Shown: one piece after another, positions 15,359 to 57,377 of the stretch | Layout of the letters: the number at the start of each line of letters is the position of its first letter | Numbering within the stretch: the first letter of the stretch is position 1 | Virus record (IMG/VR): IMGVR_UViG_3300045988_168162 | Coordinates: 64,001-128,000 of that record | DNA: 64,000 nucleotides | Reading direction: 5' to 3' (one strand) | Origin: a virus | Translations under genes and position numbers: made by a program | The notes under the pieces: generated by a model | The model's database searches: none | What the model saw: only the letters and a program-made list of their open reading frames with translations | Told to the model about the DNA's origin: nothing

Positions 15359-16229
15359 TGGATTGTATTTAGAGAAAAAATATTTCGAGATACATAGGAT
15401 CATTGTGCCACAAGATTTGATTATAAATCCAGTCAATAAAATCGCGCTGCCTGTTTATTTGACCATGTACATAATGGATAACTCTACTGTAAATGACTGT
15501 TATAATTTACCTGTTACATTAAAAAATATATGTGACAGAATAAGAATTTATAAGAATATACAACTGCGGGAAGTACATTATACTGCCGTGGCAGACGCGA
15601 TTCAGTGGCTAATTGATAGAGAGTACATAGTGGTTGATAAATTTGATAGAAAATCTACCGCAAAGTTCTTTTACAAATTTACTGACGACTTGAAGAATGC
15701 CATTAAAAAAGGTGCAGACGGTAAAAAACAGCAGTTTTTATATGTGAGCATTAAAGAGATAAATAAGTTGTTTTCAGCAATATACTCCAATAATAAAAAT
15801 TGGAAATTTTCTACTGATGCACTTATTGTTTATATGTATTTAAAACTTAAAGAAACATCTTGGCAGTATACACAGAGACGTAAACCATTACCAGTATGGG
15901 TTGGCTATTTGGGAAACATGTATGATGTGCTAAATATTTCTTCAAGAAAAGTATCTCTTATTATAACATGGTTAAAATCAGAAAAAATTATACTACCTAT
16001 TTATGGTGCGAAAGAGAAAAGCAGCGGGAATAGGGCAAAAACCATTATTGTTTTTTTGTCGTGCTGCAATGAATGCGACATACGTAAAATTGTCGCGTCT
16101 GCAGAAACGCAGATAAAAGAAAAGGATAAAAATGCGTGTTGGTATCCGGTTGACATTGCCGAAGCAGATGTTGATGTACTTGATGAAACTGCGCTTGATG
16201 TGGTTTGCGACGAGGACGAACTTTACTAA
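15315..16229 (+). CDS. hypothetical protein, AT-rich (start uncertain)
   Basis: Long ORF with lower GC than its neighbours and an acidic C-terminus. Confidence 0.45.
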   Translation: MPAGSLSYTVWPECDGLYLEKKYFEIHRIIVPQDLIINPVNKIALPVYLTMYIMDNSTVNDCYNLPVTLKNICDRIRIYKNIQLREVHYTAVADAIQWLIDREYIVVDKFDRKSTAKFFYKFTDDLKNAIKKGADGKKQQFLYVSIKEINKLFSAIYSNNKNWKFSTDALIVYMYLKLKETSWQYTQRRKPLPVWVGYLGNMYDVLNISSRKVSLIITWLKSEKIILPIYGAKEKSSGNRAKTIIVFLSCCNECDIRKIVASAETQIKEKDKNACWYPVDIAEADVDVLDETALDVVCDEDELY

Positions 16230-16354
16230 GAACTAACGCCCAACAGGGCGAAAATATAAATAGACTGGCCCCGATGGGGCAAGGGGGGGGTGATTTTATC
16301 GGAAATGCAGGAGTCTGGCTTTGAAATCTATGAACAGGGCATAATGGCCCCTGC

Positions 16355-16669
16355 ATGGATTGGCAAAATGTCAGACAGGGAGGTCATTATTTGGAAAAGA
16401 AAAAAATTGAAAATCTGTACTGCTTGATTGAAGCACTGTACGATGTGAAGGATGCCTTTAAGGCAATTGTATTTTTGACTTGCGCTGTATTTATCATTTG
16501 GTATTCCTCGGTAATTGTGAGCCGGGCATTCGCTATTGCTTTGTTTGTGGTATTGCCGCTGCTGATTGGCGTGCTGTGGTTCTGTATCTACAAAGAGGCT
16601 TTTGCGGATGGCGCTCTTTCTATTGAAGAGATTGAGAAAAAAGACGAGGATAACAAGGAGGGACGCTGA
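16355..16669 (+). CDS. membrane protein
   Basis: Two hydrophobic helices; ATGA-type junction with the next gene. Confidence 0.45.
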   Translation: MDWQNVRQGGHYLEKKKIENLYCLIEALYDVKDAFKAIVFLTCAVFIIWYSSVIVSRAFAIALFVVLPLLIGVLWFCIYKEAFADGALSIEEIEKKDEDNKEGR

Positions 16670-32288: not shown

Positions 32289-33073
32289 AAGTGCCTTATT
32301 TTGAACTACTGAATCCGATTGGTTTTATGGTAGATGGGATTGGACGAGTACATTCGCCAAAATTGCGTACCATTTGCAAACGCGGCTATAAAAATTACCA
32401 GTATGCGTTGACGCTTTTGCTTATGACCCCGCATGATTTTTTTGCGGGGATTGCTGCGGCACTACATGAGGAAAAGAACCCCTATGATGAATTACCGCAA
32501 GAGCAGAAGGACGCGCTGCATATCTTTGATTTACTTACTGCAGACGAACAGACCCAGGGCGAGATAGTAACCGCCTTGGGCTTTTTTATTGATGGTACGA
32601 TCACATTTGAGCCGAGCCACCGCTGCTTTTTAGTAAATGCGGTGCAGGACGAAACAGGGGCACTAGCAGTGGACGGCATGATCAATGCAGAGAATTGGAC
32701 GTTGGTGTGCGATGTATGCCTGCAATGTGCCTATTTAGACCCGCCCAAAGATAAACAGGCGCACAAATACCGGGATGAAAAGACACGCAAAAAGTTTGAA
32801 GAGTTCTACCGCAAGAAAGCGGAGTACGAGAAAAACAAACGCGGCGGGAAAAAGGCCGACCCTGATTATGAATTGGCCAACATCATCTCGGCACTGGCTA
32901 CCTACCATGACAGCCTGAACATGGCAAATATCTGGAACCTGACGGTGTACCAAGTACATGACACCTTCAACCGCCAGAGAATGAAACAACAGATAGATAT
33001 TACTGACTTTAACTACTCGGTTTGGGGCGGAAAAGACCACCAGGCCGATTTGTGGTTTAAAAAACTGACTTAA
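32285..33073 (+). CDS. structural hypothetical protein
   Basis: Position; ATGA overlap. Confidence 0.3.
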   Translation: MKVPYFELLNPIGFMVDGIGRVHSPKLRTICKRGYKNYQYALTLLLMTPHDFFAGIAAALHEEKNPYDELPQEQKDALHIFDLLTADEQTQGEIVTALGFFIDGTITFEPSHRCFLVNAVQDETGALAVDGMINAENWTLVCDVCLQCAYLDPPKDKQAHKYRDEKTRKKFEEFYRKKAEYEKNKRGGKKADPDYELANIISALATYHDSLNMANIWNLTVYQVHDTFNRQRMKQQIDITDFNYSVWGGKDHQADLWFKKLT

Positions 33074-33094
33074 CAACATAAAGGAGATTGCACT

Positions 33095-33829
33095 ATGGCT
33101 ATGAATCCTAATATGGCTAACCGTGAGGTTATGAACCTGGTTCTGCTGGACTACAAGACCAAGGTCCCTTACATGAACATTGACTTTGCTAATGTTTCTA
33201 CCACCAACTTTACCGCCAACCGTGTGTACGCCAAGGGCGGCTGGGGTGCCCCTAACCGCGTTGGCTTTGACGGCGAGCGTACCGGCACCCTGCAGATCGA
33301 CACCCAGATCATGCCTGCCAAGCTGTTTGCGCTGCTTTCCGGCAAGGATATTGCCAAGACCGCCAAGGTCCTGAAGCGTGAGGAGCTGGCTGCCGGTGCT
33401 GACGGTCTGGAGCTGACCGAGGAGCCCAAGACCGGTACTGTCCAGGTGTTTGCTGCGTCTGACGATTGCGGCACCCCCATTTCTGGCGTTACCGCTACCG
33501 GCAAGAAGGTTACTGCTACCGGCATTACCGAGAACCAGAACTACATTGTTTACTACTACCTGGACAAGACCACCGGTGTGCAGAGCATTAAGTTTGACGC
33601 AGACACCTTCCCGAAGGCTTTTGAGATCCGCGGCGAGATGCCCTTTAAGACCGAGGACGAAGAGGATGTTATGTGCGACCTGACCTACTACAAGGCTCAG
33701 CCGCAGGCCACCTTTAACCTGGCTTTCCAGAACACCGGTGATCCGACCACTGTGTCCATCACCTTTGACTGCTACGCCAACCAGGATGGCGATATTTACG
33801 AGATGACTTTTGAGGACGGCACTGTCTGA
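33095..33829 (+). CDS. major tail (tube) protein
   Basis: 244 aa; AAGGAG SD; high-expression codon bias; strong terminator directly after. Confidence 0.55.
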   Translation: MAMNPNMANREVMNLVLLDYKTKVPYMNIDFANVSTTNFTANRVYAKGGWGAPNRVGFDGERTGTLQIDTQIMPAKLFALLSGKDIAKTAKVLKREELAAGADGLELTEEPKTGTVQVFAASDDCGTPISGVTATGKKVTATGITENQNYIVYYYLDKTTGVQSIKFDADTFPKAFEIRGEMPFKTEDEEDVMCDLTYYKAQPQATFNLAFQNTGDPTTVSITFDCYANQDGDIYEMTFEDGTV

Positions 33830-33852
33830 TCCTTGATTGACTGAACCTAGAA

Positions 33853-33880
33853 ACAGGGGAGCTACGGCTCCCTTGTTTTT
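33853..33880 (+). terminator. rho-independent terminator
   Basis: ACAGGGGAGC-TACG-GCTCCCTTGT, then TTTT. Confidence 0.65.
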
Positions 33881-33901
33881 AGATTTTAAGGAGATGAAAA
33901 C

Positions 33902-34204
33902 ATGGAAGAGATTAAGTTTGTGGAGACTACAGCAGCGGAACTGCCTGCCGCGCAGGTAAAGAAGCCGCGCAAGAAGGCGAAGCCGCAGGCTGAAGAGGTT
34001 GTTATGGAGACTATGCCGGAGACGCAAGTGCCGCCGATGCAGCAGGGGATTGTTGTTTACCGCAATGAGGCTACCGATGTACTGGGTTTTGAGTGCGATG
34101 GCCATGGCTACCAGGTGCCAGGCGCAAAAGAACTGGGGTATAAGCTTGGCGACAATGTCGATTTTATGGTAGTTGATGGAAAGATCGTGTTTGGCATTGC
34201 GTAA
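33902..34204 (+). CDS. hypothetical protein
   Basis: AAGGAG SD. Confidence 0.4.
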   Translation: MEEIKFVETTAAELPAAQVKKPRKKAKPQAEEVVMETMPETQVPPMQQGIVVYRNEATDVLGFECDGHGYQVPGAKELGYKLGDNVDFMVVDGKIVFGIA

Positions 34205-34595
34205 TAAGTACAAAGTTTCGGCAAAAGAGGACCGCACCTATGATGGGATTGTGTTTGACTCTAAGGCCGAGATGAAATACTACCGGGATGTTGTGCTGCC
34301 CGGCGTTGCCAACGGGACGATTGTGGATTATCAGTTACAAAAGCCGTATGAGCTGCAGCCGAAATTTAAACATGACGGCAAAACCGTGCGAGCTATAACT
34401 TATGTATGTGATTTTTACCTGGTGTATGCAGATGGGCATACTGAGGTAATTGATATAAAAGGTATGGCGACTACGGAAGCATTGCTGAAGCGAAAGCTGT
34501 TTATGTACAGATACCCGGATGAAAACTGTATATGGCTGGTGGAACGCAAGGCCGGTTGGATACGATATGAAGATTGCAAAAAGCGTAAAAAATAG
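34197..34595 (+). CDS. DUF1064-type nuclease-fold protein
   Basis: NKYKVSAKEDRTYDGIVFDSKAEMKYY ... DFYLVYADGHTEVIDIKG pattern; start uncertain. Confidence 0.5.
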   Translation: MRNKYKVSAKEDRTYDGIVFDSKAEMKYYRDVVLPGVANGTIVDYQLQKPYELQPKFKHDGKTVRAITYVCDFYLVYADGHTEVIDIKGMATTEALLKRKLFMYRYPDENCIWLVERKAGWIRYEDCKKRKK

Positions 34596-34605
34596 GGAGG
34601 CTTTT

Positions 34606-34686
34606 ATGACCAATAAAATTTTGCGGGGGGGGGTACTCCCTTAATGTAGTACCCGAAATGCACCTTACGAAAGTGGGGTGTTGGGT
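34606..34686 (+). promoter_or_regulatory. leader 1: mini-ORF (MTNKILRGGVLP, 34606-34644), G9 tract (34625-34633), hairpin 1 (34631-34654), hairpin 2 with GAAA loop (34661-34680)
   Basis: AGGGAGG SD before the mini-ORF; stems GGGTACT/AGTACCC and CACCTTAC/GTGGGGTG; the second stem covers the SD-like GGGGTG of the cassette. Confidence 0.6.
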
Positions 34687-35019
34687 ATGAGTGTTGCGCT
34701 GATGAGTGCAGGCGGCGGTAGCGGAAGTATTACAAGAGTAGAGCTTGTAGATTTGTCATTTTCACGATATAGTGGTAGTTTTACTAAAACGGCAGATGTT
34801 TCTTCGTATAAAGGATACAAAAAATTCACTAATGATAATTTTGTTGTTATGACGACATCTGTATATATGGGTGATAGCGACGCTTATGCAGGCAGCAGTT
34901 ACAGTGTGTCTTACAATCAAGATACTGGAATTGTTACTTTTACTGTGAAGATAAATACGAACGCAAATGGCGGGTATCATCAACATTCTGCTTCTGCCAA
35001 AGGATATTTATTTTACTAA
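34687..35019 (+). CDS. cassette protein 1 (conserved MSVALM..GGG N-terminus, unique C-terminus)
   Basis: MSVALMSAGGGSGS...; paralogous N-terminus shared with 35129, 36129 and 36769. Confidence 0.6.
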   Translation: MSVALMSAGGGSGSITRVELVDLSFSRYSGSFTKTADVSSYKGYKKFTNDNFVVMTTSVYMGDSDAYAGSSYSVSYNQDTGIVTFTVKINTNANGGYHQHSASAKGYLFY

Positions 35020-35038
35020 TTAAAACAAGGAGTTATTT

Positions 35039-35128
35039 ATGAATTACATGAATTTTGTCCGGGGGGGGGGTACTGTGTAAACCATAGTATCTCCGAAGCA
35101 TCTCGTTTAGAAAGCGAGGTGCTGTGAT
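35039..35128 (+). promoter_or_regulatory. leader 2: mini-ORF (MNYMNFVRGGGTV, 35039-35080), G10 tract (35061-35070), hairpin 1 (35066-35094), hairpin 2 (35098-35122)
   Basis: AAGGAG SD; stems GGGGGTACT/AGTATCTCC (2 G-U pairs) and GCATCTCG/CGAGGTGC, the latter covering GAGGTG. Confidence 0.6.
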
Positions 35129-35572
35129 ATGGCATTAGCTTTGATGGGGCCTGGCGGTGGCGGAAGTAATAAAGAAATATCAAAAATGAAGTCTACAAGA
35201 CTATGGACGAACGCAAACTCTTTTAAGAATTTTGACGGAAACGGTATCAAAGGAGGCCCTGGCTCCACACCAAATATTCCACTTTCAAATTTAACTGATT
35301 ATGATGTACTCGCTATTGCGTGTAAATTATACACTAACAGTTCTAATGACAATCCATTTATTAACTATATTGGAGTAAAAGAACAAATTTTGAATGGGAA
35401 AAATGGTGGATTATTTATATTGTGTGGAGGAACTGGCGGATCTGCTGGCGTTTTTAGAAACGCGCGTCTTCTCTCTACTGGCCTTTGTGTTACGTGGGAC
35501 ACAGGATCACTGGACGGGGAACATGTATCTAATGATGGAGCAATTCCATTGTATGTAGATGGATTAAAGTAA
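35129..35572 (+). CDS. cassette protein 2
   Basis: MALALMGPGGGGSNKE...; unique C-terminus. Confidence 0.6.
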   Translation: MALALMGPGGGGSNKEISKMKSTRLWTNANSFKNFDGNGIKGGPGSTPNIPLSNLTDYDVLAIACKLYTNSSNDNPFINYIGVKEQILNGKNGGLFILCGGTGGSAGVFRNARLLSTGLCVTWDTGSLDGEHVSNDGAIPLYVDGLK

Positions 35573-35581
35573 GAGGTAAAT

Positions 35582-36001
35582 ATGAAAATCTATGATGAGA
35601 TCACTAAAGAGGAGCTGACGGCTCCTGATGAAAGTAAAGGTTATCTGTATGATAGCCAGATTAAAACTGGCATGACTAAGGACGCCTATGAAGTTATGGT
35701 AGGAACTGTTACTGAGGATTGTCCGAATGGCTTGCGCCGTTTGATCCCCGGCCATGCTGTTTTTGAGGCTTGCCAGTTCTACCATACATATACCGACGAG
35801 GAAATCAAGCGCATGGAAGAGCAGGCTGCTGCGGAGCAGGCTGCAAAAGACCGTGAGGCCAAGATTGCGATGATTGACTCGATTGATGCGCAGGTGACTT
35901 ATACTGCCATGATGACGGATACGCTGATGGAAGAGACTGATAGCGGTGAAGGCTCCGGCAGTGATGGCGCGGCTGATTCTACTGATAGCAAGGAGGCTTA
36001 A
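35582..36001 (+). CDS. tail-fibre-associated protein (the type found upstream of XkdX genes)
   Basis: MKIYDEITKEELTAPDESKGYLYD... pattern, typical of genes preceding xkdX in Firmicutes phages; Ala/Glu coiled coil. Confidence 0.4.
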   Translation: MKIYDEITKEELTAPDESKGYLYDSQIKTGMTKDAYEVMVGTVTEDCPNGLRRLIPGHAVFEACQFYHTYTDEEIKRMEEQAAAEQAAKDREAKIAMIDSIDAQVTYTAMMTDTLMEETDSGEGSGSDGAADSTDSKEA

Positions 36002-36003
36002 TT

Positions 36004-36132
36004 ATGTTTGAGAAAATTAAGCGTTGGTATCCGAAACTGTGGAACAAAACCATGGTGAAGAATGCTGTAAAGAAGGGTGTTATTACTCCTGAACAGTACA
36101 AGGAAATTGTTGGAGAGGAGTATAAAGCATGA
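36004..36132 (+). CDS. XkdX-family small protein (42 aa)
   Basis: MFEKIKRWYPKLWNKTMVKNAVKKGVITPEQYKEIVGEEY; found by hand; its TGA overlaps the ATG of the next cassette. Confidence 0.6.
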   Translation: MFEKIKRWYPKLWNKTMVKNAVKKGVITPEQYKEIVGEEYKA

Positions 36133-36644
36133 GTGTTGCAATGATGGGGGCTGGCGGTATCGTAAACAATCGCGCTTCTCTAGTGCCTGCTATGACATCT
36201 AACAGTCAAAATGGTTATACAGTTTCTGCAAGTAATTACTATAATAATGATAGTAGCCTTTACCCAATTTGGCACGCTTTTGATGGCAACACCATTCGTG
36301 GTGGGTGGGCTGAACAAGCAAATGGTTCTACGCTATACGTCGGTGCCAGTAATAGAAACGTAGATGTTGATATTACATTTCCAAAAGAAGTATCCGTGCA
36401 TGCTGTAAAAGTTATTGCATCAACCTATGAAGCTGGTGGTGTTCGACAGCCTGCAAGTGCCTCACTTTCCTATTGCAATAAATCCGGTTCATATATTTCA
36501 GTTAATATTAACCAAATAGCTGCCGGTAAATCTGGCACGACAGACGACTGTAATGGAGTCGAATATCCTAAAAGTAAAAAATGGCGTGTCACTTTAGTAA
36601 GATTGGGTGAATATATTGGGTTAAATCAGATTCTTTTATTTTAA
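36129..36644 (+). CDS. cassette protein 3 with discoidin/F5-8-type-C-like carbohydrate-binding domain
   Basis: N-terminus MSVAMMGAGG, then HAFDGNTIRGGWAEQ ... VDVDITFPKEVSVHAVKV, typical of galactose-binding-like domains. Confidence 0.55.
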   Translation: MSVAMMGAGGIVNNRASLVPAMTSNSQNGYTVSASNYYNNDSSLYPIWHAFDGNTIRGGWAEQANGSTLYVGASNRNVDVDITFPKEVSVHAVKVIASTYEAGGVRQPASASLSYCNKSGSYISVNINQIAAGKSGTTDDCNGVEYPKSKKWRVTLVRLGEYIGLNQILLF

Positions 36645-36679
36645 ATGTTTATTATCGAATTTAATTGGAGGTATATTTT

Positions 36680-36772
36680 ATGATTAAGAATATTCTGCGG
36701 GGGGGGGGGTATAGTAATCTAAACTATACCTCTGATATGGATACTTGTGCCGGAAAGGCGGTGCGAGTATGA
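36680..36772 (+). promoter_or_regulatory. leader 3: mini-ORF (30 aa in the current frame), G11 tract (36699-36709), hairpin 1 (36706-36732), hairpin 2 (36744-36767); the mini-ORF TGA overlaps the cassette ATG
   Basis: TTGGAGG SD; stems GGGGTATAG/CTATACCTC and CTTGTGCCG/CGGTGCGAG; ATGA junction at 36769-36772. Confidence 0.6.
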
Positions 36773-37173
36773 GTGTTGCGTTGATGGGACCTGGTGGCGG
36801 CGACTCGAATTTTAAAAAGATGTTTAAAGATTTGTCGTTTTCAAGTGCCGAAAGGGTTCTGCTCTGGACAAATAGCAATCACACAAATAATAACACAGGC
36901 AGTGTTACTGCCGATACTGGCTCTCAGCTTTATGCTGCTTATTGTATAACTGTAAAAGGGCACTCTTCTCTTAGTCCACAATATGTAGCTGAATTTATTG
37001 CTATTCGTGGTGCATCTCATAATGCCGTTGGTGGAATTGATAGAAGCATTTGGCGTGGTGTTAAAATTGATGGTTCAAACATTACAATAGGAACACCATA
37101 TGCTGGTGAAACAACGCACTGGGAGAGTACCATTGTGTACCAGATTTATGGCATCAAAGGAACAGAACTTTAA
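36769..37173 (+). CDS. cassette protein 4
   Basis: MSVALMGPGGGDSNFKK...; unique C-terminus. Confidence 0.6.
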   Translation: MSVALMGPGGGDSNFKKMFKDLSFSSAERVLLWTNSNHTNNNTGSVTADTGSQLYAAYCITVKGHSSLSPQYVAEFIAIRGASHNAVGGIDRSIWRGVKIDGSNITIGTPYAGETTHWESTIVYQIYGIKGTEL

Positions 37174-37189
37174 TTAAATTATGTTATAG

Positions 37190-37228
37190 CCTCGCACCTT
37201 GGATAGGTGCGGGGCGATTTTTTATTTT
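37190..37228 (+). terminator. rho-independent terminator
   Basis: CCTCGCACC / GGTGCGGGG stem, then a T-rich run. Confidence 0.6.
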
Positions 37229-37243
37229 AAAGGAGAATTTTGT

Positions 37244-37741
37244 ATGGAAATTAAGAAAAATATTACCGTGCAGGAGCGCGTGGATTTTGTGAATTTTGTT
37301 GTGGATACTTGCACGGTGGATAGCCGCTATGTACCGGCACTGTTTGATTTTGCCTGGCGTGCGGGCGTGGTGAAGTTTTTTGCACCGGAGGTTTGGGAGC
37401 ACCTGGGCGGCCAGGATGATATTTGCGATTTTGTGTACAGCCGTGACGGCATTGAAATTGTAGAACACCCGGATATTGCCGAGGTCACCGCTGGCCTGTA
37501 TGAAGCCTGCCAGGAAGAGATTAAGAACCGGCGCGAGGAATATATGGTGGTTTACCAGAGCGTGGCACACCCTGACCCGATGGACCGTATTGCGGATGCC
37601 TTTGAAGAGATTGCAGGAGCCATGAAGGGGCTGAATGACCCGGACATGCTGGTGGAGATTGCCAAGAAGGCCGGGCTGGTAGGGAAGAAGGCTGCACCGG
37701 CTGGTAAGGCTGTACCGCTGGAGCTTGCTAAGAAGGAGTAA
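37244..37741 (+). CDS. tail assembly chaperone candidate
   Basis: AAGGAG SD; acidic 165 aa protein two genes upstream of the tape measure. Confidence 0.4.
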   Translation: MEIKKNITVQERVDFVNFVVDTCTVDSRYVPALFDFAWRAGVVKFFAPEVWEHLGGQDDICDFVYSRDGIEIVEHPDIAEVTAGLYEACQEEIKNRREEYMVVYQSVAHPDPMDRIADAFEEIAGAMKGLNDPDMLVEIAKKAGLVGKKAAPAGKAVPLELAKKE

Positions 37742-37744
37742 GAC

Positions 37745-38218
37745 ATGGCTACGGTAACAACGCTGAAAGGTTTAGAGCTTGAAATGCAGCGGCGCATTAA
37801 CCGTGCCCTACGTGGAGAAGTTGCGAACGAAGTAGAGAAATGCGTGCAGAAACATGTGCAGCAGGATGTTTTAAGCAAATATGAGCCTGTTGCATATGAA
37901 CGGCGTGGCGGTGGCGGCCTGGAAGGTGAGGCCAATATCAAAAGCGCTGTACGAGACAAAACTTTGACGGTTAAGGATGTGGCACAAATAGAGGGGCCAA
38001 GACTCCCTGGTTACTCGGCCAGTCATGCTTCTGACACTGAATTTTCCAAACTGATTGAAGGATATGGAAAAGGCGTTGCGAACCCGTGGGGTGGCAGGAA
38101 TGGTGCGTGGACAAAACCGCGCCCATTTATGACAAATGCAAAAAAAGAGATTGTCCGTGAAAATAGTCAGGTTCATGGGCGGATTGTAAAAGCTATAAAA
38201 AAGCAATTTCCTGAATAA
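37745..38218 (+). CDS. HK97 gp10-like tail component
   Basis: LEMQRRINRALRGEVANEV ... KPRPFMTNAKKE resembles the gp10-family pattern. Confidence 0.45.
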   Translation: MATVTTLKGLELEMQRRINRALRGEVANEVEKCVQKHVQQDVLSKYEPVAYERRGGGGLEGEANIKSAVRDKTLTVKDVAQIEGPRLPGYSASHASDTEFSKLIEGYGKGVANPWGGRNGAWTKPRPFMTNAKKEIVRENSQVHGRIVKAIKKQFPE

Positions 38219-38306
38219 ACGGCAGAGGCTTCGGCCTTTGTCTTGAGTGGTTAGTGATAAATAACCGTTGAAGAGAAAGGCCGAAAGCCATAAGGAGGAT
38301 AAAATT

Positions 38307-41300
38307 ATGGCAGAAGATTTAAATATTAAGGTAAAGGTAACACCTGATACCAGTGGGGTACAGGGAGAGCTAAATGGACAGGCTGGTAGGTTTAATTTGC
38401 CAGTAAAAGTGTCACTGCAGAATGTTGCGGATATACAAACTCAAATTCAAAATATCGGCAAAAACATTGATGTTAAAGTTAATCTTACTATGGCACAGAA
38501 CGGTGTAAAAAATCAACTAAATAGTTTAAAGAATCAAAAGGTTGATATGCAACTGTTCGACACCACGAAACTTACGCAGGAATTAAATAAAGTAAGCAGT
38601 GCTATTGAAAAAGCTGTCTCAAAGATTCAGATCGCTTTGTCTACAAAGATAGATTCTACAATGAAGGCAACTGCGAGCAATGTCGAAAACCTCGGAAAAT
38701 CTTTTGGCACTATTCAGACAAGAATAGATTCTATTAAAAATACTGGCGACAAGGCTAAAATGCAGGCCGGCCTCGATACTGCCAAGAAGAACTATAACAA
38801 TCTTATTCAGCTTGGCACATTGACAACAGAACAATTTAGTGGGATGGCTACTCAGCTTGCTATGGTGAATCGCCAAGTTCTTGACATTGTTGCGTCTGAA
38901 AAGAAATTAGAAAATCAAGCAGCAAGAGTCGCCAAGATCAATATGCGTGGCGATGAACTTATTGATTCTTACAATCGTGGTAATGCAGATTTGAAAGATG
39001 TGTATGATGCGTCTGCTAAGAAATATAGAACAAAAGACGACAGAAACGCAAAACGCAGATTGGATCGACAGCAAAATAGGATTAGCGGTCTCATTCAAAA
39101 TTTCCAGAACAATCCTACGACAGAAAACTTTGATCTTCTATCTCATGAAATTACGATGTATGAGCGAAACAGCAATGATTTGCAGAGTACATTAAGAGCC
39201 GAAAAGAAAGAATGGGAAGATAACGAAAAAGCAAAACAGAATGCTGCAAAAGCTACTGCTGCCGTGGCAAAGAAGACGCAGGAAGCGCAACAAAAAGCAG
39301 AAGATGCACGAAAAAAGACTGCATCGAATTTGAATCAGCAATTTGCAAATTCTGATTTTTCTGATTCGCAAATTAAATATTTCGCAGCAAAAAACAACGG
39401 TTATAGCACTGCAGATATGAAGCGGTACTTCGCAAGTACAGACAAATGGAACATTAAGCTCAAATCCGCGATTTCCGCATTTAATAATGATCCTACTGAA
39501 CAGAATCTTAAAAAGCTGACTACTACCTATAATGGATATATTACCGCCAAGAAAAAGTTGGATACTTCCTTGACTGAAGAAAAATCCAAATGGGAAAAGA
39601 CAGCAGCCGGTATTAAAAAATCCGGGGAAGACCTTGGCAAAACATATTCGGCGCTTGAACAGAAAAAGGCAAAACTTGATTCTACTTACACCAAAAAAGT
39701 AGAAGGAACACAATTTACAAATCAGGCCATTGAAGATCTTGCAAAAGGGCAAAATGGCACGACCAGTATTGCTACATTGTTTACTGATGCAGAGACCGCG
39801 AAAAAAGATTTTGAAAAAAATATGGACAGCGGTTCTCTTGCACGATATAAAGCTGCAATAGAAGCTTTGACGCAGGCGCTTGCCAAAATGGACGCAGAGC
39901 TTACTGTAGCCGCAAAAAGCTCTGACCAGTTCAATAGTCAAATGCGGGCAAAACAGAACAAATACTCCAGTGAGATGACCCGGCTTAGTCAGTCCGGCAC
40001 TGATTTACAGGATCTTGCAATAAGAACTGGCCATGGAAACATGGTTAATAGCAACACGGCGGAAGGCGTACTTTGGGGAGAAGTTTCTGACGCCAGCAAA
40101 GAAGCAAGAACCGCAATGGCGGAGTTCGATCAAAAGCTTGACACAAACAGCCTTTTGAAGTACGAGCAGGCATTGCAGCACCTAAAAGAGTTGCTATCTC
40201 AGTTCCGTGATGAACTGACGAAAACTATTACTGCTACTAATAAGATGGGCGATATTAAAGATACAAACGCCGCCCAAATGAGTGAATATCAGAAGAGTTT
40301 GCAGGAGCTTACCGCAAGATATAATACCGCTGTTGCAAGTAAACAGGCCAACGGTAAGGATATGGGCGGTTTGCTTGTCGGAACGGATTTAACTGCTATC
40401 AATGACGCTTACACTAAAGCAGATCAAGCCAAAGCGAATTTTGAGCGCGATATGAATCAGACTTCGCTGGCTGCCTACAAAACGGCCATGGCTGCTTTGG
40501 CGCAGGAAATTCGCAATCTGACTTCTGCTTTGGACTCTGCTGATAATTCTGCGGAGAAGGCATTTAGTTCGTTGCCAACACAGATGAATGCTGTCGAAGG
40601 CACCCTCAAGACGTTAAATGATACATATCGTGCGCAGCAAAACCGCGGTAAAAGTGATGCTGGCGTAGAAAGCACAATTCAGCTTTATACTGATGTGCTT
40701 AAAGAGATGCGGCAGATAGAAGCTTCTGGCAGTAATGACTATTCTCAATTCACGGAAATGTTCAAGAAGTTTGATTCGCAATTGCAAGCATCTGGCATTA
40801 ACATCAATAACTTTACAGACTTCATGCGAGCCATGAATTCCGTGGCTACTCAGGCAAAAGTTTCTATTGGTGATCTTGGCAACGAATTCAAACAGCAACA
40901 GAGCATTGAGTCTTTGAATAAGCGCTTGAACAATCTACTGTATACCATGGAGCGCTATGTTGAGATCAATAAAAAGATCCAGGGCAATTCTGACGTAATG
41001 AACCAGTACAATAGTGTGAAATCTGATATTCAGAGTGCCTTGCGGAGTACAGATGGCGCATTTAAAGAAAGTACATTGTCTAAGGCTGCTGAAGGATTTT
41101 CGGCACTGAAAAAACAGGCGCAGGATCTTGAGCTTGAGGGTAAGACACTGAGCCAAGTATTCCAGAATCTGTTTGGCCAGCATTTTAGTACGATGGTCGC
41201 CATGGGTGCGCTGCATTTGATGCAGAATAGCTTACAGCAGGTTTATCAGAATGTCGTGGATATTGATACGGCTATGACGGAACTGAAGAAGGTTACGGAT

Positions 41301-42359
41301 GAGACGAGCTCGACTTATTCTAAGTTTTTGAGTGACGCCGGTAACCAGGCCAAGGAGTTGGGCGCCAGTGTTAGCGATGTGGTTAGCGCGACTGCCGACT
41401 TTGCCCGGCTTGGATATAACTTACAGGATGCCAATGAGATTGCCGAGTCTGCCATTATGTTTAACCGTGTTGGCGACGGCGTTTCTGATGTTAATGAGGC
41501 CAGCGAAGATATTATTTCGGCTATGAAGGCTTTTAATATCGAGGCCGAAAACAGTCAGCAAATCGTTGACAAATACAACGAGGTAGGTAATAATTATGCC
41601 ATCAGTTCGGCAGGTGTCGCGGACGCCTTGACTAGATCGGCCGCTGCACTGCATGCCGCCGGAAACGATATTAACCAATCTATTGGTATGATCGTAGCAG
41701 CCAATGATGTCGCCCAATCGCCCGAGCAGGTAGGAAATGCCTTAAAGGTACTTTCTTTACGTATTCGTGGAGCGACTACTGAACTTGAGGCCATGGGCGA
41801 AGATGCCGACGGAGCCGCGACCAGCACAGCAAAACTACAGGCTGAAATTAAGGCTTTGTCTGGCGTTAATATCATGAAGGATCGGGATACATTCAAATCT
41901 ACATACGAAATCTTGGATGAATTGGCTGATAAGTGGGATAGTCTAACTGACGTCTCCAAGGCCAGCATCCTGGAGGACCTTGCTGGCAAAAACCGCGCCA
42001 GTGTTGTAGCCGGTATGTTGGAAAACTGGGATGATGCCAAGAAAGCCATGGAGACAGCACAGAAAAGTGCAGGCAGCGCAGAAGCGGAGTTGGAGACAGC
42101 ATTGGATTCCGTGCAGGGCAAGCTCTCTCAGTTCCAAGCTACTTTTCAATCTTTTTCCGAGACCGTCCTCGATTCTGATTTAGTTAAAGGTATTATTGAT
42201 TTTGGTACAAGCGCACTAGATGCTGCAGATGGATTTACCAAATGGGCCGGAGTAATCCCGACCTTGACCGCAGCATTAAGTGCCTTTTTGTCGTTGTCTG
42301 GTACGAAGACTCAGGGCAGTATTCAGATGCTCGCTTACGCAGTAGGAATAGCTGCGTAG
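38307..42359 (+). CDS. tape measure protein, N-terminal part (contains a TP901-type core)
   Basis: AAGGAGG SD; long coiled coil; core region TELKKVTDETS...GYNLQDANEIAESAIMFNRVGDG...AGVADALTRSAAAL; ends in a hydrophobic segment. Confidence 0.8.
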   Translation: MAEDLNIKVKVTPDTSGVQGELNGQAGRFNLPVKVSLQNVADIQTQIQNIGKNIDVKVNLTMAQNGVKNQLNSLKNQKVDMQLFDTTKLTQELNKVSSAIEKAVSKIQIALSTKIDSTMKATASNVENLGKSFGTIQTRIDSIKNTGDKAKMQAGLDTAKKNYNNLIQLGTLTTEQFSGMATQLAMVNRQVLDIVASEKKLENQAARVAKINMRGDELIDSYNRGNADLKDVYDASAKKYRTKDDRNAKRRLDRQQNRISGLIQNFQNNPTTENFDLLSHEITMYERNSNDLQSTLRAEKKEWEDNEKAKQNAAKATAAVAKKTQEAQQKAEDARKKTASNLNQQFANSDFSDSQIKYFAAKNNGYSTADMKRYFASTDKWNIKLKSAISAFNNDPTEQNLKKLTTTYNGYITAKKKLDTSLTEEKSKWEKTAAGIKKSGEDLGKTYSALEQKKAKLDSTYTKKVEGTQFTNQAIEDLAKGQNGTTSIATLFTDAETAKKDFEKNMDSGSLARYKAAIEALTQALAKMDAELTVAAKSSDQFNSQMRAKQNKYSSEMTRLSQSGTDLQDLAIRTGHGNMVNSNTAEGVLWGEVSDASKEARTAMAEFDQKLDTNSLLKYEQALQHLKELLSQFRDELTKTITATNKMGDIKDTNAAQMSEYQKSLQELTARYNTAVASKQANGKDMGGLLVGTDLTAINDAYTKADQAKANFERDMNQTSLAAYKTAMAALAQEIRNLTSALDSADNSAEKAFSSLPTQMNAVEGTLKTLNDTYRAQQNRGKSDAGVESTIQLYTDVLKEMRQIEASGSNDYSQFTEMFKKFDSQLQASGININNFTDFMRAMNSVATQAKVSIGDLGNEFKQQQSIESLNKRLNNLLYTMERYVEINKKIQGNSDVMNQYNSVKSDIQSALRSTDGAFKESTLSKAAEGFSALKKQAQDLELEGKTLSQVFQNLFGQHFSTMVAMGALHLMQNSLQQVYQNVVDIDTAMTELKKVTDETSSTYSKFLSDAGNQAKELGASVSDVVSATADFARLGYNLQDANEIAESAIMFNRVGDGVSDVNEASEDIISAMKAFNIEAENSQQIVDKYNEVGNNYAISSAGVADALTRSAAALHAAGNDINQSIGMIVAANDVAQSPEQVGNALKVLSLRIRGATTELEAMGEDADGAATSTAKLQAEIKALSGVNIMKDRDTFKSTYEILDELADKWDSLTDVSKASILEDLAGKNRASVVAGMLENWDDAKKAMETAQKSAGSAEAELETALDSVQGKLSQFQATFQSFSETVLDSDLVKGIIDFGTSALDAADGFTKWAGVIPTLTAALSAFLSLSGTKTQGSIQMLAYAVGIAA

Positions 42360-42870: not shown

Positions 42871-43299
42871 ATGGCTGCATATACATTTGACGGAATTCCA
42901 GCAGGGGCGCTTACAATTGGTATTCTTGTGGATGTGTATGCAAATTTTGCACGAAAATGTGTTACTGGAATTATAGATACTGGGTGCTCAAATACATGTA
43001 TTTCTGAGGAATTGGCAGGGATAATGGAGTTGCATCCTTGTGGCCATACAGAATATACTGTTGTTGGCGGAGATAGGGTTTCCGTCAATAAATACATGGT
43101 TAATATAATGATTGATGACACAATACCGTGCGGAGACATCGAAGCAGGTTCTTACCATAAAGGCTCGGAATTTTACGATGTGATTATTGGCATGGATATA
43201 CTTAGTAAGTGCGATTTTGCAGTTACAAGCGCAAATGGCCACATGAAGCTAACTATGGAGTATCCTTCTAAACGAGACCTCGATTTTACAAAAGAATAA
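42871..43299 (+). CDS. retropepsin-like (clan AA) aspartic protease
   Basis: GIIDTGCSNTCIS (DTG active-site motif) and VIIGMDILSK. Confidence 0.6.
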   Translation: MAAYTFDGIPAGALTIGILVDVYANFARKCVTGIIDTGCSNTCISEELAGIMELHPCGHTEYTVVGGDRVSVNKYMVNIMIDDTIPCGDIEAGSYHKGSEFYDVIIGMDILSKCDFAVTSANGHMKLTMEYPSKRDLDFTKE

Positions 43300-44248: not shown

Positions 44249-44407
44249 ATGACTTTACAGATTACAGGAGACGCAAAAGAAATAGCCGAATTGATTGAGA
44301 TGTTACAAAAGCAGTGCACTAAAGATGCCAAATTGAGAAATTATGTTTGCGGTTGCATCGAGAATAATAGTGGATCAATCAAATTGTCAAGACAAAATCT
44401 CGGGTGA
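44249..44407 (+). CDS. small hypothetical protein (52 aa)
   Basis: GAGGAGG SD 7 nt upstream; found by hand; 3' end overlaps the convergent gene. Confidence 0.4.
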   Translation: MTLQITGDAKEIAELIEMLQKQCTKDAKLRNYVCGCIENNSGSIKLSRQNLG

Positions 44408-56846: not shown

Positions 56847-57377
56847 ATGGGAATTAAATTTAAAAGACAAGGTGGCGGCTCGACCAACTATAACTCAGCC
56901 AAAGCGCCTACAAGTTTGAATTATGGCGAGCCTGCCGTTGACAGTGAAGGCCGCATTTATGTTGGCAATGGACAGCGCCAGGTAGTGAGCCGCGTAAAAA
57001 TTGCCGACAGCTGTACCAATGCGACCAGTGCTACGACTGCGGTGCGAGCCACGAATGCCAGTAATGCCGACCGGGCAAAATTCGATTTGCCGCTGTACCA
57101 TGCTTATCTTTCGGCGTCCAGCTGGAGCAATTATGGGAGTTATTATACACAGTCTCCCAGTTGTTACGCAGAGAGCGGCGGTCCTAGTATGACATCCGAC
57201 ATGCAGTTGAGCCCGCCTATGACGCAGGGCACAGGGGTGCAATCCACAGACGAATCGCTAATGGAAACGCTAAACATTATCAATGCGGGAACGACTACGC
57301 CCGGTTACGGAAGAATTACCGTAAAGGTTTGGGAAAAACCGGAGACAGACATTACTGTGTATTATTACGCACGATAA
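56847..57377 (+). CDS. hypothetical tail protein
   Basis: GGGGAGAAG SD. Confidence 0.4.
   Translation: MGIKFKRQGGGSTNYNSAKAPTSLNYGEPAVDSEGRIYVGNGQRQVVSRVKIADSCTNATSATTAVRATNASNADRAKFDLPLYHAYLSASSWSNYGSYYTQSPSCYAESGGPSMTSDMQLSPPMTQGTGVQSTDESLMETLNIINAGTTTPGYGRITVKVWEKPETDITVYYYAR

Follow-up and report, generated by a model that had tools for sequence, protein, structure and literature searches.

Poly-G leaders as candidate contingency switches ahead of exchangeable cassettes in an SPbeta-like gut phage

Why would a phage place a structured leader with a long run of G ahead of three different small genes of the same region? This question is raised by a 64,000-nucleotide stretch of viral DNA (IMG/VR record IMGVR_UViG_3300045988_168162, positions 64,001 to 128,000), hereafter designated as the window, to whose positions all coordinates refer. 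The three genes, cassettes 1, 2 and 3, start at 34687, 35129 and 36769, and each is preceded by a leader comprising a Shine-Dalgarno (SD) sequence, a short open reading frame (mini-ORF) with a tract of 9, 10 or 11 G, and two hairpins. The evidence, all of it computational, points to the leaders being contingency switches in which slipped-strand changes of poly-G length would gate exchangeable cassettes via translational coupling, a reading to which we assign a probability of about 0.7. G tracts, SD sequences, mini-ORFs and cassette starts had been reported in an initial annotation made from the letters of the window, and all were recovered at their places. The structure and the conserved layout recognized at that time are retained here, and to them is added the mechanism that the annotation did not reach, namely that the tracts set the frame of the mini-ORFs.

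Leader layout and the frame rule

A leader is referred to as ON when the frame set by its tract stays open up to the cassette start, and as OFF when it does not. The elements of the three leaders, as sequenced, are the following.

34595-34600, plus strand: SD of leader 1, GGGAGG
34606-34644, plus strand: mini-ORF 1 (MTNKILRGG..), G9, OFF frame, 12 codons, stop in the loop of hairpin 1
34625-34633, plus strand: G9 tract of leader 1
34631-34654, plus strand: hairpin 1 of leader 1 (GGGTACT / AGTACCC), holding both OFF-frame stops (34642 and 34647)
34649-34688, plus strand: hairpin 2 of leader 1, inner stem 34660-34681, GAAA loop
35027-35032, plus strand: SD of leader 2, AAGGAG
35039-35080, plus strand: mini-ORF 2 (MNYMNFVRGGG..), G10, OFF, 13 codons
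35061-35070, plus strand: G10 tract of leader 2
35066-35094, plus strand: hairpin 1 of leader 2, 12 bp
35097-35123, plus strand: hairpin 2 of leader 2, 12 bp, with the cassette 2 SD (GAGGUG) in its 3' arm
36667-36671, plus strand: SD of leader 3, GGAGG
36680-36772, plus strand: leader ORF 3 (MIKNILRGGG..), G11, ON frame, 30 codons, its TGA (36770-36772) overlapping the cassette ATG at 36769
36699-36709, plus strand: G11 tract of leader 3
36705-36733, plus strand: hairpin 1 of leader 3, 11 bp, holding both OFF-frame stops (36712 and 36720)
36734-36777, plus strand: hairpin 2 of leader 3, inner stem 36741-36770, GAAAGG loop

The tracts begin 19-22 nt into mini-ORFs that lie 81-90 nt upstream of the cassettes. 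Only four G/C homopolymers of at least 7 nt occur in the 64 kb, the G9, G10 and G11 located within 2.1 kb of each other and a G8 at 16283, and the three leader tracts fall within the range at which poly-G is hypermutable (G/C runs of about 7-8 or more).

Each leader of the window was rebuilt in silico with 6 to 14 G. With 8, 11 or 14 G, all three leaders acquire an ORF of 27-29 codons that runs across both hairpins and ends at gtATGA, overlapping the cassette ATG (copies 1 and 3), or at TGA-T-ATG (copy 2); the two other length classes stop after 9-15 codons, inside hairpin 1, in all three copies. Mini-ORF 1 rebuilt with G8, G11 or G14 reaches the TGA at 34688-34690, which overlaps the cassette 1 ATG, and mini-ORF 2 rebuilt with G8 or G11 stops at the TGA at 35125-35127, one base ahead of the ATG at 35129. 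As sequenced, the G9 and G10 leaders are OFF and the G11 leader is ON.

This frame rule is kept in 17 of 17 distinct leaders, which represent about eight sequence families on related and unrelated phage contigs, and it extends to every leader-type tract of the relatives and also of the L027, L034, L035 and L041 lineages, the sequences of which are unrelated to that of the window. The coupling frame is free of internal stops in all 17, as compared with an open-frame probability of 0.10-0.41 per leader in composition-matched shuffles. The offset from leader stop to cassette start is -1, +2, +4, +6 or +11 nt, with ATGA, TGA-T-ATG or TAATG junctions, and all leaders thereby display the stop at, or a few nt from, a downstream start that is expected of translational coupling. 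In silico, the rule by which tract length would toggle cassette expression is perfect.

Hairpins, covariation and masking of the cassette start

The same arrangement of two hairpins was obtained for 16 of 16 leaders folded, the cassette SD being located on the 3' side of hairpin 2. The tract contributes its last 3-6 G to the 5' arm of hairpin 1, and the second hairpin has the purine-rich SD region of the cassette as its 3' arm. In leader 1, hairpin 2 masks the cassette 1 SD (GUGGGGUG) and, in its extended form, also the AU of the AUG; in leader 3, its 3' arm spans GGUGCGAGU and the AU of the cassette 3 start codon. Folding z-scores of the three window leaders were -2.2, -5.0 and -6.1. The two hairpins that the initial annotation had drawn for each copy are present, except that the minimum-energy fold of copy 1 is an alternative one, in which the G tract pairs with CUCCCUU and GUACCC with GGGUAU, and hairpin 2 is lengthened over the AUG. 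A possible competing structure was also noted in leader 3 (36666-36733): in the minimum-energy fold of the full leader, the 3' arm of hairpin 1 (UAUACCUCU) is engaged by the SD of the leader itself (GGAGGUAUA) and not by the G tract. This predicted competition could tune initiation at the leader.

The covariation claimed for hairpin 1 was borne out, with compensatory changes at three of the nine pairs of the window-type structure. In the L027-type leaders, nine of the 25 predicted pairs show compensatory double changes, a degree of covariation reached by none of 500 shuffles, and 96.6% of alignment cells are paired vs. 38-49% when the partner is slid. Hairpin sequences differ between leader families and the pairing is conserved. 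Hairpin 2 could not be aligned with MAFFT across all leader families, and covariation was therefore counted within families. That the structure is functional and does not reflect chance, as had been argued from three copies, is supported by the retention of mini-ORF and hairpins, with compensatory changes, in relatives of the window and in a lineage of unrelated sequence. Searches with Rfam covariance models returned no family match; the sole hit, RsaJ (21.7 bits vs. a gathering score of 100), is a chance match at the terminator that closes the module.

In most leader cassettes, the SD region has a pairing probability of 0.93-1.0. The value is 0.6 in the cassette-3 type, whose loop takes up some of the purine run and whose AUG is base-paired. 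Control values from 36 other genes of the window have a median of 0.53 and do not exceed 0.92. The leaders have local folding energies of -22 to -39 kcal/mol, vs. a control median of -14.5. Strong structure downstream of a tract is a property of leader-type tracts only, the median being -24.9 kcal/mol vs. -13.7 for tracts located inside genes (p = 2e-4). The cassette SD and start are masked by a stable structure that is itself part of the upstream translated region.

A leader ORF followed by two hairpins and a sequestered SD bears a superficial likeness to attenuators of the ermC or cat type, in which a ribosome stalled in response to a signal (e.g., on Gly codons) would remodel the hairpins and free the cassette SD. 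Such remodelling would need pairing between the 3' arm of hairpin 1 and the 5' arm of hairpin 2, which is worth -0.4 to -4.5 kcal/mol as compared with -10 to -23 for the native hairpins (14 of 14 leaders), and the frame rule would be left unexplained. We give this explanation almost no weight.

Proposed mode of action

In a contingency switch of this design, ribosomes would load on the mini-ORF, which has a good SD and an ATG, and the length of the tract would set the frame read downstream. In the OFF state, the ribosome would stop in hairpin 1 after 9-15 codons and hairpin 2 would remain closed, with the cassette SD and AUG buried. In the ON state (8, 11 or 14 G), the ribosome would cross both hairpins and terminate on or next to the cassette AUG, melting hairpin 2 and then re-initiating or admitting a new 30S subunit, so that the cassette is made. 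Slipped-strand mispairing during replication of the phage DNA would change tract length, and a lysate would be a mix of phasotypes. With their different bodies, the cassettes would bind different host structures, and the switches would hedge the host range. For the phage of the window, this predicts that cassette 3 is ON, that cassettes 1 and 2 are OFF and that a fourth cassette, whose start lies in the same ATGAGTGTTGC junction but is coupled to an XkdX family gene and not to a leader, is presumably always made. As for hairpin 1, it probably serves to position the stops of the OFF frames and to shield hairpin 2 against ribosomes that terminate or scan. The 3' arm of hairpin 1 resembles an anti-SD sequence and might also engage in weak pairing with the SD arm.

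Tract-length variation between assemblies

A search with the tail-tube protein (33095-33829; Pfam YomU_Tube on relatives) led to 21 viral contigs. Leaders of the window type were found in L001-L003, L031, L032, L047, L102, L135 and L163-L168. Leader 1 has a tract of 8, 9 or 10 G across assemblies whose upstream flanks are identical at 76-80 of 80 positions, leader 2 has 6, 8, 9 or 10 G, and leader 3 has 8, 9 or 11 G or an interrupted G7T (the allele of L002), which retains the ON frame. Overall, tract lengths range from 6 to 11 over about 12 assemblies, in which as many as 80 of 80 upstream and 79 of 80 downstream flanking positions agree. A number of public contigs start or stop precisely at a G tract (contig ends of L033, L163 and L164), which suggests that assemblers face conflicting tract lengths at these sites, be it from heterogeneity or from error. 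As regards the states themselves, a pattern of exactly one switch ON per genome fitted the four closest genomes and was abandoned, since it failed in L031 (0 of 4), L032 (0 of 3), L034 (0 of 9) and L166 (two ON).

Where flanks are identical and tract lengths are not, the assemblies differ in the DNA itself, which bears on a different use of the tracts, RNA-level recoding by polymerase stutter or ribosome slippage at the G run. With recoding, every genome copy would yield a fixed small share of leader translation in the coupling frame, as a stoichiometry device and not a heritable switch; it could also add to DNA switching. A run of 9-11 identical bases formally qualifies as a slippery sequence (G GGG GGG), a hairpin comes directly after it, and most tracts, of which G9 is the commonest length, are one slip off the coupling frame. 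The shift needed is, however, +1 for a window-type G9, -1 for G10 and none for G11, so that no single programmed shift fits, and the tract reaches into the 5' arm of hairpin 1, leaving a spacer of about 0 instead of the 5-9 nt typical of stimulators of -1 frameshifting. Transcriptional slippage is best documented for A/T runs. We regard recoding as unlikely, although it comes ahead of the other alternatives considered. A programmed -1 frameshift signal in particular was rejected: the heptamer is present, but the spacer is about 0 and the direction of the shift varies with tract length.

The contig breaks, together with the unreliability of homopolymer calls in assemblies, could also be taken to mean that length variation is an assembly artefact and the tracts are incidental, the structured leaders serving mRNA stability, processing or protection from Rho and the cassettes being expressed independently of tract length. 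Covariation of the hairpins, which is strong whatever the tract state, would be expected under such a role. Such a role does not account for the fact that each of the 17 leaders has exactly one frame open as far as the cassette start, that both other frames stop in hairpin 1, that hairpin 2 always masks the SD and that sister cassettes have the tract inside their genes (see below), and we hold it to be improbable.

The cassettes and their putative products

The cassettes and the two genes lying between them are organized as follows.

34687-35019, plus strand: cassette 1, 110 aa, tag MSVALMSAGGG
35129-35572, plus strand: cassette 2, 147 aa, tag MALALMGPGGGG
35582-36001, plus strand: XkdW-like gene, 139 aa, 50% identical to the gene preceding XkdX in L027 and L034
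36004-36132, plus strand: XkdX family gene (PF09693, E 3.7e-16), its stop overlapping the cassette 4 start
36129-36644, plus strand: cassette 4, 171 aa, tag MSVAMMGAGG, without a G-tract leader, ATGA-coupled to XkdX
36769-37173, plus strand: cassette 3, 134 aa, tag MSVALMGPGGG

The four cassettes are alike only in their first 10-12 residues (MSVALMGPGGG-like), hereafter the tag, and share 22-35% identity beyond it. Because codons vary synonymously within the tag, the peptide itself appears to be under selection. Bodies are exchanged between near-identical genomes, with leaders and tags staying in place, and the same body occurs behind different lineage-specific tags.

Cassettes 1-3 matched no Pfam or PHROG family, and a profile search of the sequences in the Protein Data Bank (PDB) was empty. 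In the AlphaFold2 model of cassette 3 (predicted local distance difference test, pLDDT, 64), the body forms a beta-sandwich and the tag is disordered; the model of cassette 4 (pLDDT 51) was too poor for use. Compared with PDB structures, the best matches of the cassette 3 model were the receptor-binding protein gp144 of phage K and the phi812 baseplate, at a weak level (E 0.016-0.04, template modelling score about 0.45), and its best matches to named proteins in BFVD were tail and tail-fibre proteins. The modelled body is, in this sense, weakly similar to C-terminal domains of phage receptor-binding proteins. One homolog of the cassette 3 body follows TMP, Dit and Tal (TMP, tape-measure protein) in an unrelated siphophage, and another is found as the C-terminal domain of a virion structural protein of 363 aa. 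The modules of L027 and L034 come directly after a fibre-like protein whose C-terminal part resembles 56847-57377 of the window, a region that encodes a fibre-like protein of 176 aa at the end of the tail module and adjoins tail and tail-fibre PHROG hits.

Based on models and gene context, the cassettes most likely encode small virion-surface proteins, such as fibre tips or adhesins. We infer that the tag is a docking peptide to a common partner and that the bodies are alternative adhesin tips of a tail or head fibre. The name of tail cassettes, as they were called in the initial annotation, is plausible by context and fold, and short of proof.

Related modules, their distribution and possible origin

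Close relatives carry the Pfam families YomW, YomV, YomU, YomN and YonB, and the phage is therefore considered SPbeta-like. Megablast of 33000-38300 against GenBank phages gave no match. The whole module has no counterpart in relatives whose tail tubes are 81-91% identical, and in one of these (L004, 9110-10078) a DUF1064 gene directly abuts the ortholog of window 37199-37741. Since relatives of the L004 type do without it, 34596-37215 is a mobile accessory insertion between tail tube and tape measure. It is closed by the following element, which stands amid the string of tail genes, directly after cassette 3 and upstream of the tape-measure gene.

37189-37215, plus strand: strong hairpin resembling an intrinsic terminator, 11 bp, 8 of them GC, followed by a T-run

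At the other side of the module, 34173-34595 encodes a DUF1064 or Holliday-junction-resolvase-like protein (PF06356, E 3e-34), located between tail-tube and tail-assembly genes. This gene, directly upstream of the module, may be relevant to cassette exchange by recombination.

Homologs of the cassette 3 body led to L027, L034 and L035, in which a fibre-like protein of 268 aa, an XkdW-like gene and XkdX precede an array of at least 11 small genes, in which 11 G tracts occur that are 8-11 nt long. Two layouts occur in these arrays. In layout A, the tract lies inside the gene, directly after a conserved tag (MSSQFMxPxxGGG), which is the classic form of phase variation by frameshift. Layout B has a separate tract-bearing mini-ORF, a hairpin 1 and a hairpin 2 over the cassette SD (GGAGGU). 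Although no hairpin sequence of the L027-lineage B leaders can be aligned to the window leaders, one frame runs uninterrupted over 35-44 codons to a stop that is part of ATGA or TAATG or that precedes the cassette ATG by 3-8 nt, and the other two frames end in hairpin 1. L041 contains two leaders of a further sequence family. Layout A was also found in the window-type lineage (L031 5880, MALALMGPSAGGG).

A chimeric leader in L034 (5851-5957) begins with an L027-type tag (MSNQFMTP..), continues with an interrupted tract (G9AG3) and then with the leader tail and hairpins of the window-cassette-3 type, and precedes an MSVALM-tagged cassette. Judged by its sequence, it suggests recombination within G tracts and a mixing of two tag systems in one phage. 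Because of the tag-like leader peptides and this chimera, layout B probably arose from layout A by recombination at tracts. The same observations would fit an origin without function, in which a leader is a recombination scar, the dead 5' end (tag and tract) of a former cassette with an in-gene tract that remained after the insertion of a complete new cassette. Leader peptides do resemble degenerate tags (MKNNFISSLIGFNGGG vs. MSSQFMNSSIGSNGGG), and the chimera at L034 5851 joins the tag of one lineage to the leader tail of another exactly at the tract; scars, however, would not be expected to retain two covarying hairpins over about eight diverged families, together with a strong SD on the leader and a coupling frame that is open and ends in an overlap of stop and start, which makes this origin very improbable.

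In a third lineage (L204 7568-7640 and L214 7474), with the tag MGVAPRIPG, we observed a short leader (MKHCKKSAACAARGG) with G7 only and without hairpins. Its stop overlaps the cassette start (TGATG), and one extra G would fuse leader and cassette in frame.

The putative switch is lineage-restricted, because most other loci with an XkdW-like gene (55 phage loci) have no G-tract system. A scan of genome contigs with the cassette 3 profile recovered no relative, and a scan with the XkdW-like profile recovered only Gemmiger and Subdoligranulum contigs, L041 (46% GC) among them, which gives a weak hint of the host. A pattern scan of metagenomes was unspecific, real leaders accounting for 3 of 120 among the matches listed.

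Points that weigh against the switch

Several of the above points weigh against a coupled switch of adhesin cassettes. Coupling and switching are both deduced from the design of the sequence. Homopolymer lengths are error-prone in short-read and unitig assemblies, and the variation reported here could be partly technical. Most tracts are OFF in consensus assemblies (ON: 0 of 9 in L034 and 1 of 11 in L027), which fits bet-hedging and also fits decay. Hairpin 1 is the least explained element, its role not following from the coupling model alone. The function of the cassettes is read from gene context and weak fold matches (model pLDDT 64; E 0.002-0.04 to solved receptor-binding structures of phages or to proteins with tail or fibre names); the fusion partner in the 363 aa protein bears the PHROGs label 'head protein', not tail; and the presence in L034 of cassettes with two different tags does not fit simple docking on one partner.

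Comparison with known systems

Variable homopolymers have been described in several phages. Campylobacter phages (Fletchervirus) have hypermutable poly-G in receptor-binding-protein genes (Sorensen et al. 2021, Cell Rep 35:109214, as cited in PMC12823448), contingency loci are known from T2/T4 phages (Gomez et al. 2025, PMC12633550), and a 2025 Nature paper on gut phages lists poly-G tracts only via a Campylobacter reference. As proposed for the window, the Campylobacter and T2/T4 loci combine a phage homopolymer, reversible length change, ON/OFF genes and mixed progeny, and the in-gene tracts of L027, L034 and L031 are on paper the same. In those loci the tract lies inside the regulated gene, whereas the window has a separate mini-ORF and a hairpin-gated stop/start junction, and tract length therefore never changes the cassette protein. 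Further differences are the setting, an SPbeta-like gut phage in a Clostridia-like context, and the arrays of three to at least 11 tag-sharing, exchangeable and putatively independently switched cassettes. Since each cassette would switch independently, combinations are possible.

In bacteria, repeats in leaders include the G-repeat of Helicobacter pylori tlpB, targeted by RepG (PMC8295292), and a repeat element in a 5' untranslated region of Haemophilus influenzae (PMC12721329). Bacterial contingency loci based on simple sequence repeats (Neisseria, Haemophilus, Campylobacter, Helicobacter) share with the window slipped-strand, stochastic, heritable and reversible states, and some of the leader repeats act post-transcriptionally. 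The known bacterial leader repeats work by pairing with a small RNA, by RNase processing or by promoter spacing, whereas those of the window would work by the frame of an upstream ORF that frees a masked SD, a mode of action for which the literature searches returned no bacterial leader repeat.

Translational coupling in which a ribosome unfolds a structure occluding the SD is familiar from MS2, between coat and replicase, and from rpmI-rplT. There, as proposed for the window, a hairpin located inside the translated upstream sequence holds the downstream start closed, and upstream translation that proceeds to a stop at the start site opens it. Coupling is constitutive in both cases, whereas in the window a mutable tract would decide whether the ribosome arrives at the hairpin. 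Functional analogues, in that they make a stochastic choice among host-recognition modules, are the Gin inversion of Mu, the Cin inversion of P1 and diversity-generating retroelements; unlike them, the window would use a homopolymer as its switch, without flanking inverted repeats. An invertible segment of the Gin/Cin type was considered and rejected, as the inverted repeats detected amounted to two weak pairs (19-20 nt, 75-79% complementary) that do not flank the cassettes; no search for an invertase or reverse transcriptase was made.

Literature searches on homopolymers, phase variation, leader peptides or upstream ORFs and translational coupling returned no description of the leader-ORF coupling layout or of multi-cassette arrays. 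The earlier statement that no such element had been described can be upheld for the leader layout, as far as these searches reach, and not for poly-G phase variation of phage receptor-binding genes, which is already published. Within the same limits, what is new is the wiring of a contingency locus via coupling controlled by an upstream ORF, and its occurrence in multi-cassette arrays of gut phages.

A wider formulation, to which we give even chances, is that of a portable riboregulatory phase switch. It would consist of an SD, a poly-G mini-ORF, an insulating hairpin and an SD-locking hairpin with stop/start overlap, and would convert DNA slippage into all-or-none coupling with the regulated protein left unaltered; by arrays of three to at least 11 such units, SPbeta-like and other gut phages would display random combinations of tag-docked adhesin tips. 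If true, this would be a third general route by which phages randomise host recognition, beside DNA inversion and diversity-generating retroelements, and one present in abundant uncultured gut phages. It would also represent a new wiring of a contingency repeat to a gene, in which the mutable site is kept apart from the protein sequence and any cassette can be put behind the switch, and a phage counterpart of bacterial surface variation of the opa or vlp type, with a new route of bet-hedging on host range. The design is simple enough for reporter work and for reuse in synthetic biology. Tract variation of this kind would be systematically missed, because gene callers and virome pipelines treat the leaders as intergenic and assemblies break at the tracts.

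Other features of the window

The fourth homopolymer of the window, the G8 at 16283-16290, lies inside a 440 nt gap between ORFs ending at 16229 and starting at 16669. It is not accompanied by an SD-ATG leader of the design found ahead of the cassettes, and G10 at this place would open an ORF of 51 codons. It could be another contingency site or a chance occurrence.

Downstream of the module, the window encodes two very large tape-measure-like proteins, at 38268-42359 (1363 aa) and 46123-51918 (1931 aa). The counterpart of the former in close relatives has a PhageMin_Tail domain, and the latter matches PHROG tape-measure families. Between the two lie an aspartyl-protease-like gene (42871-43299) and a block of minus-strand genes (44387-46060).

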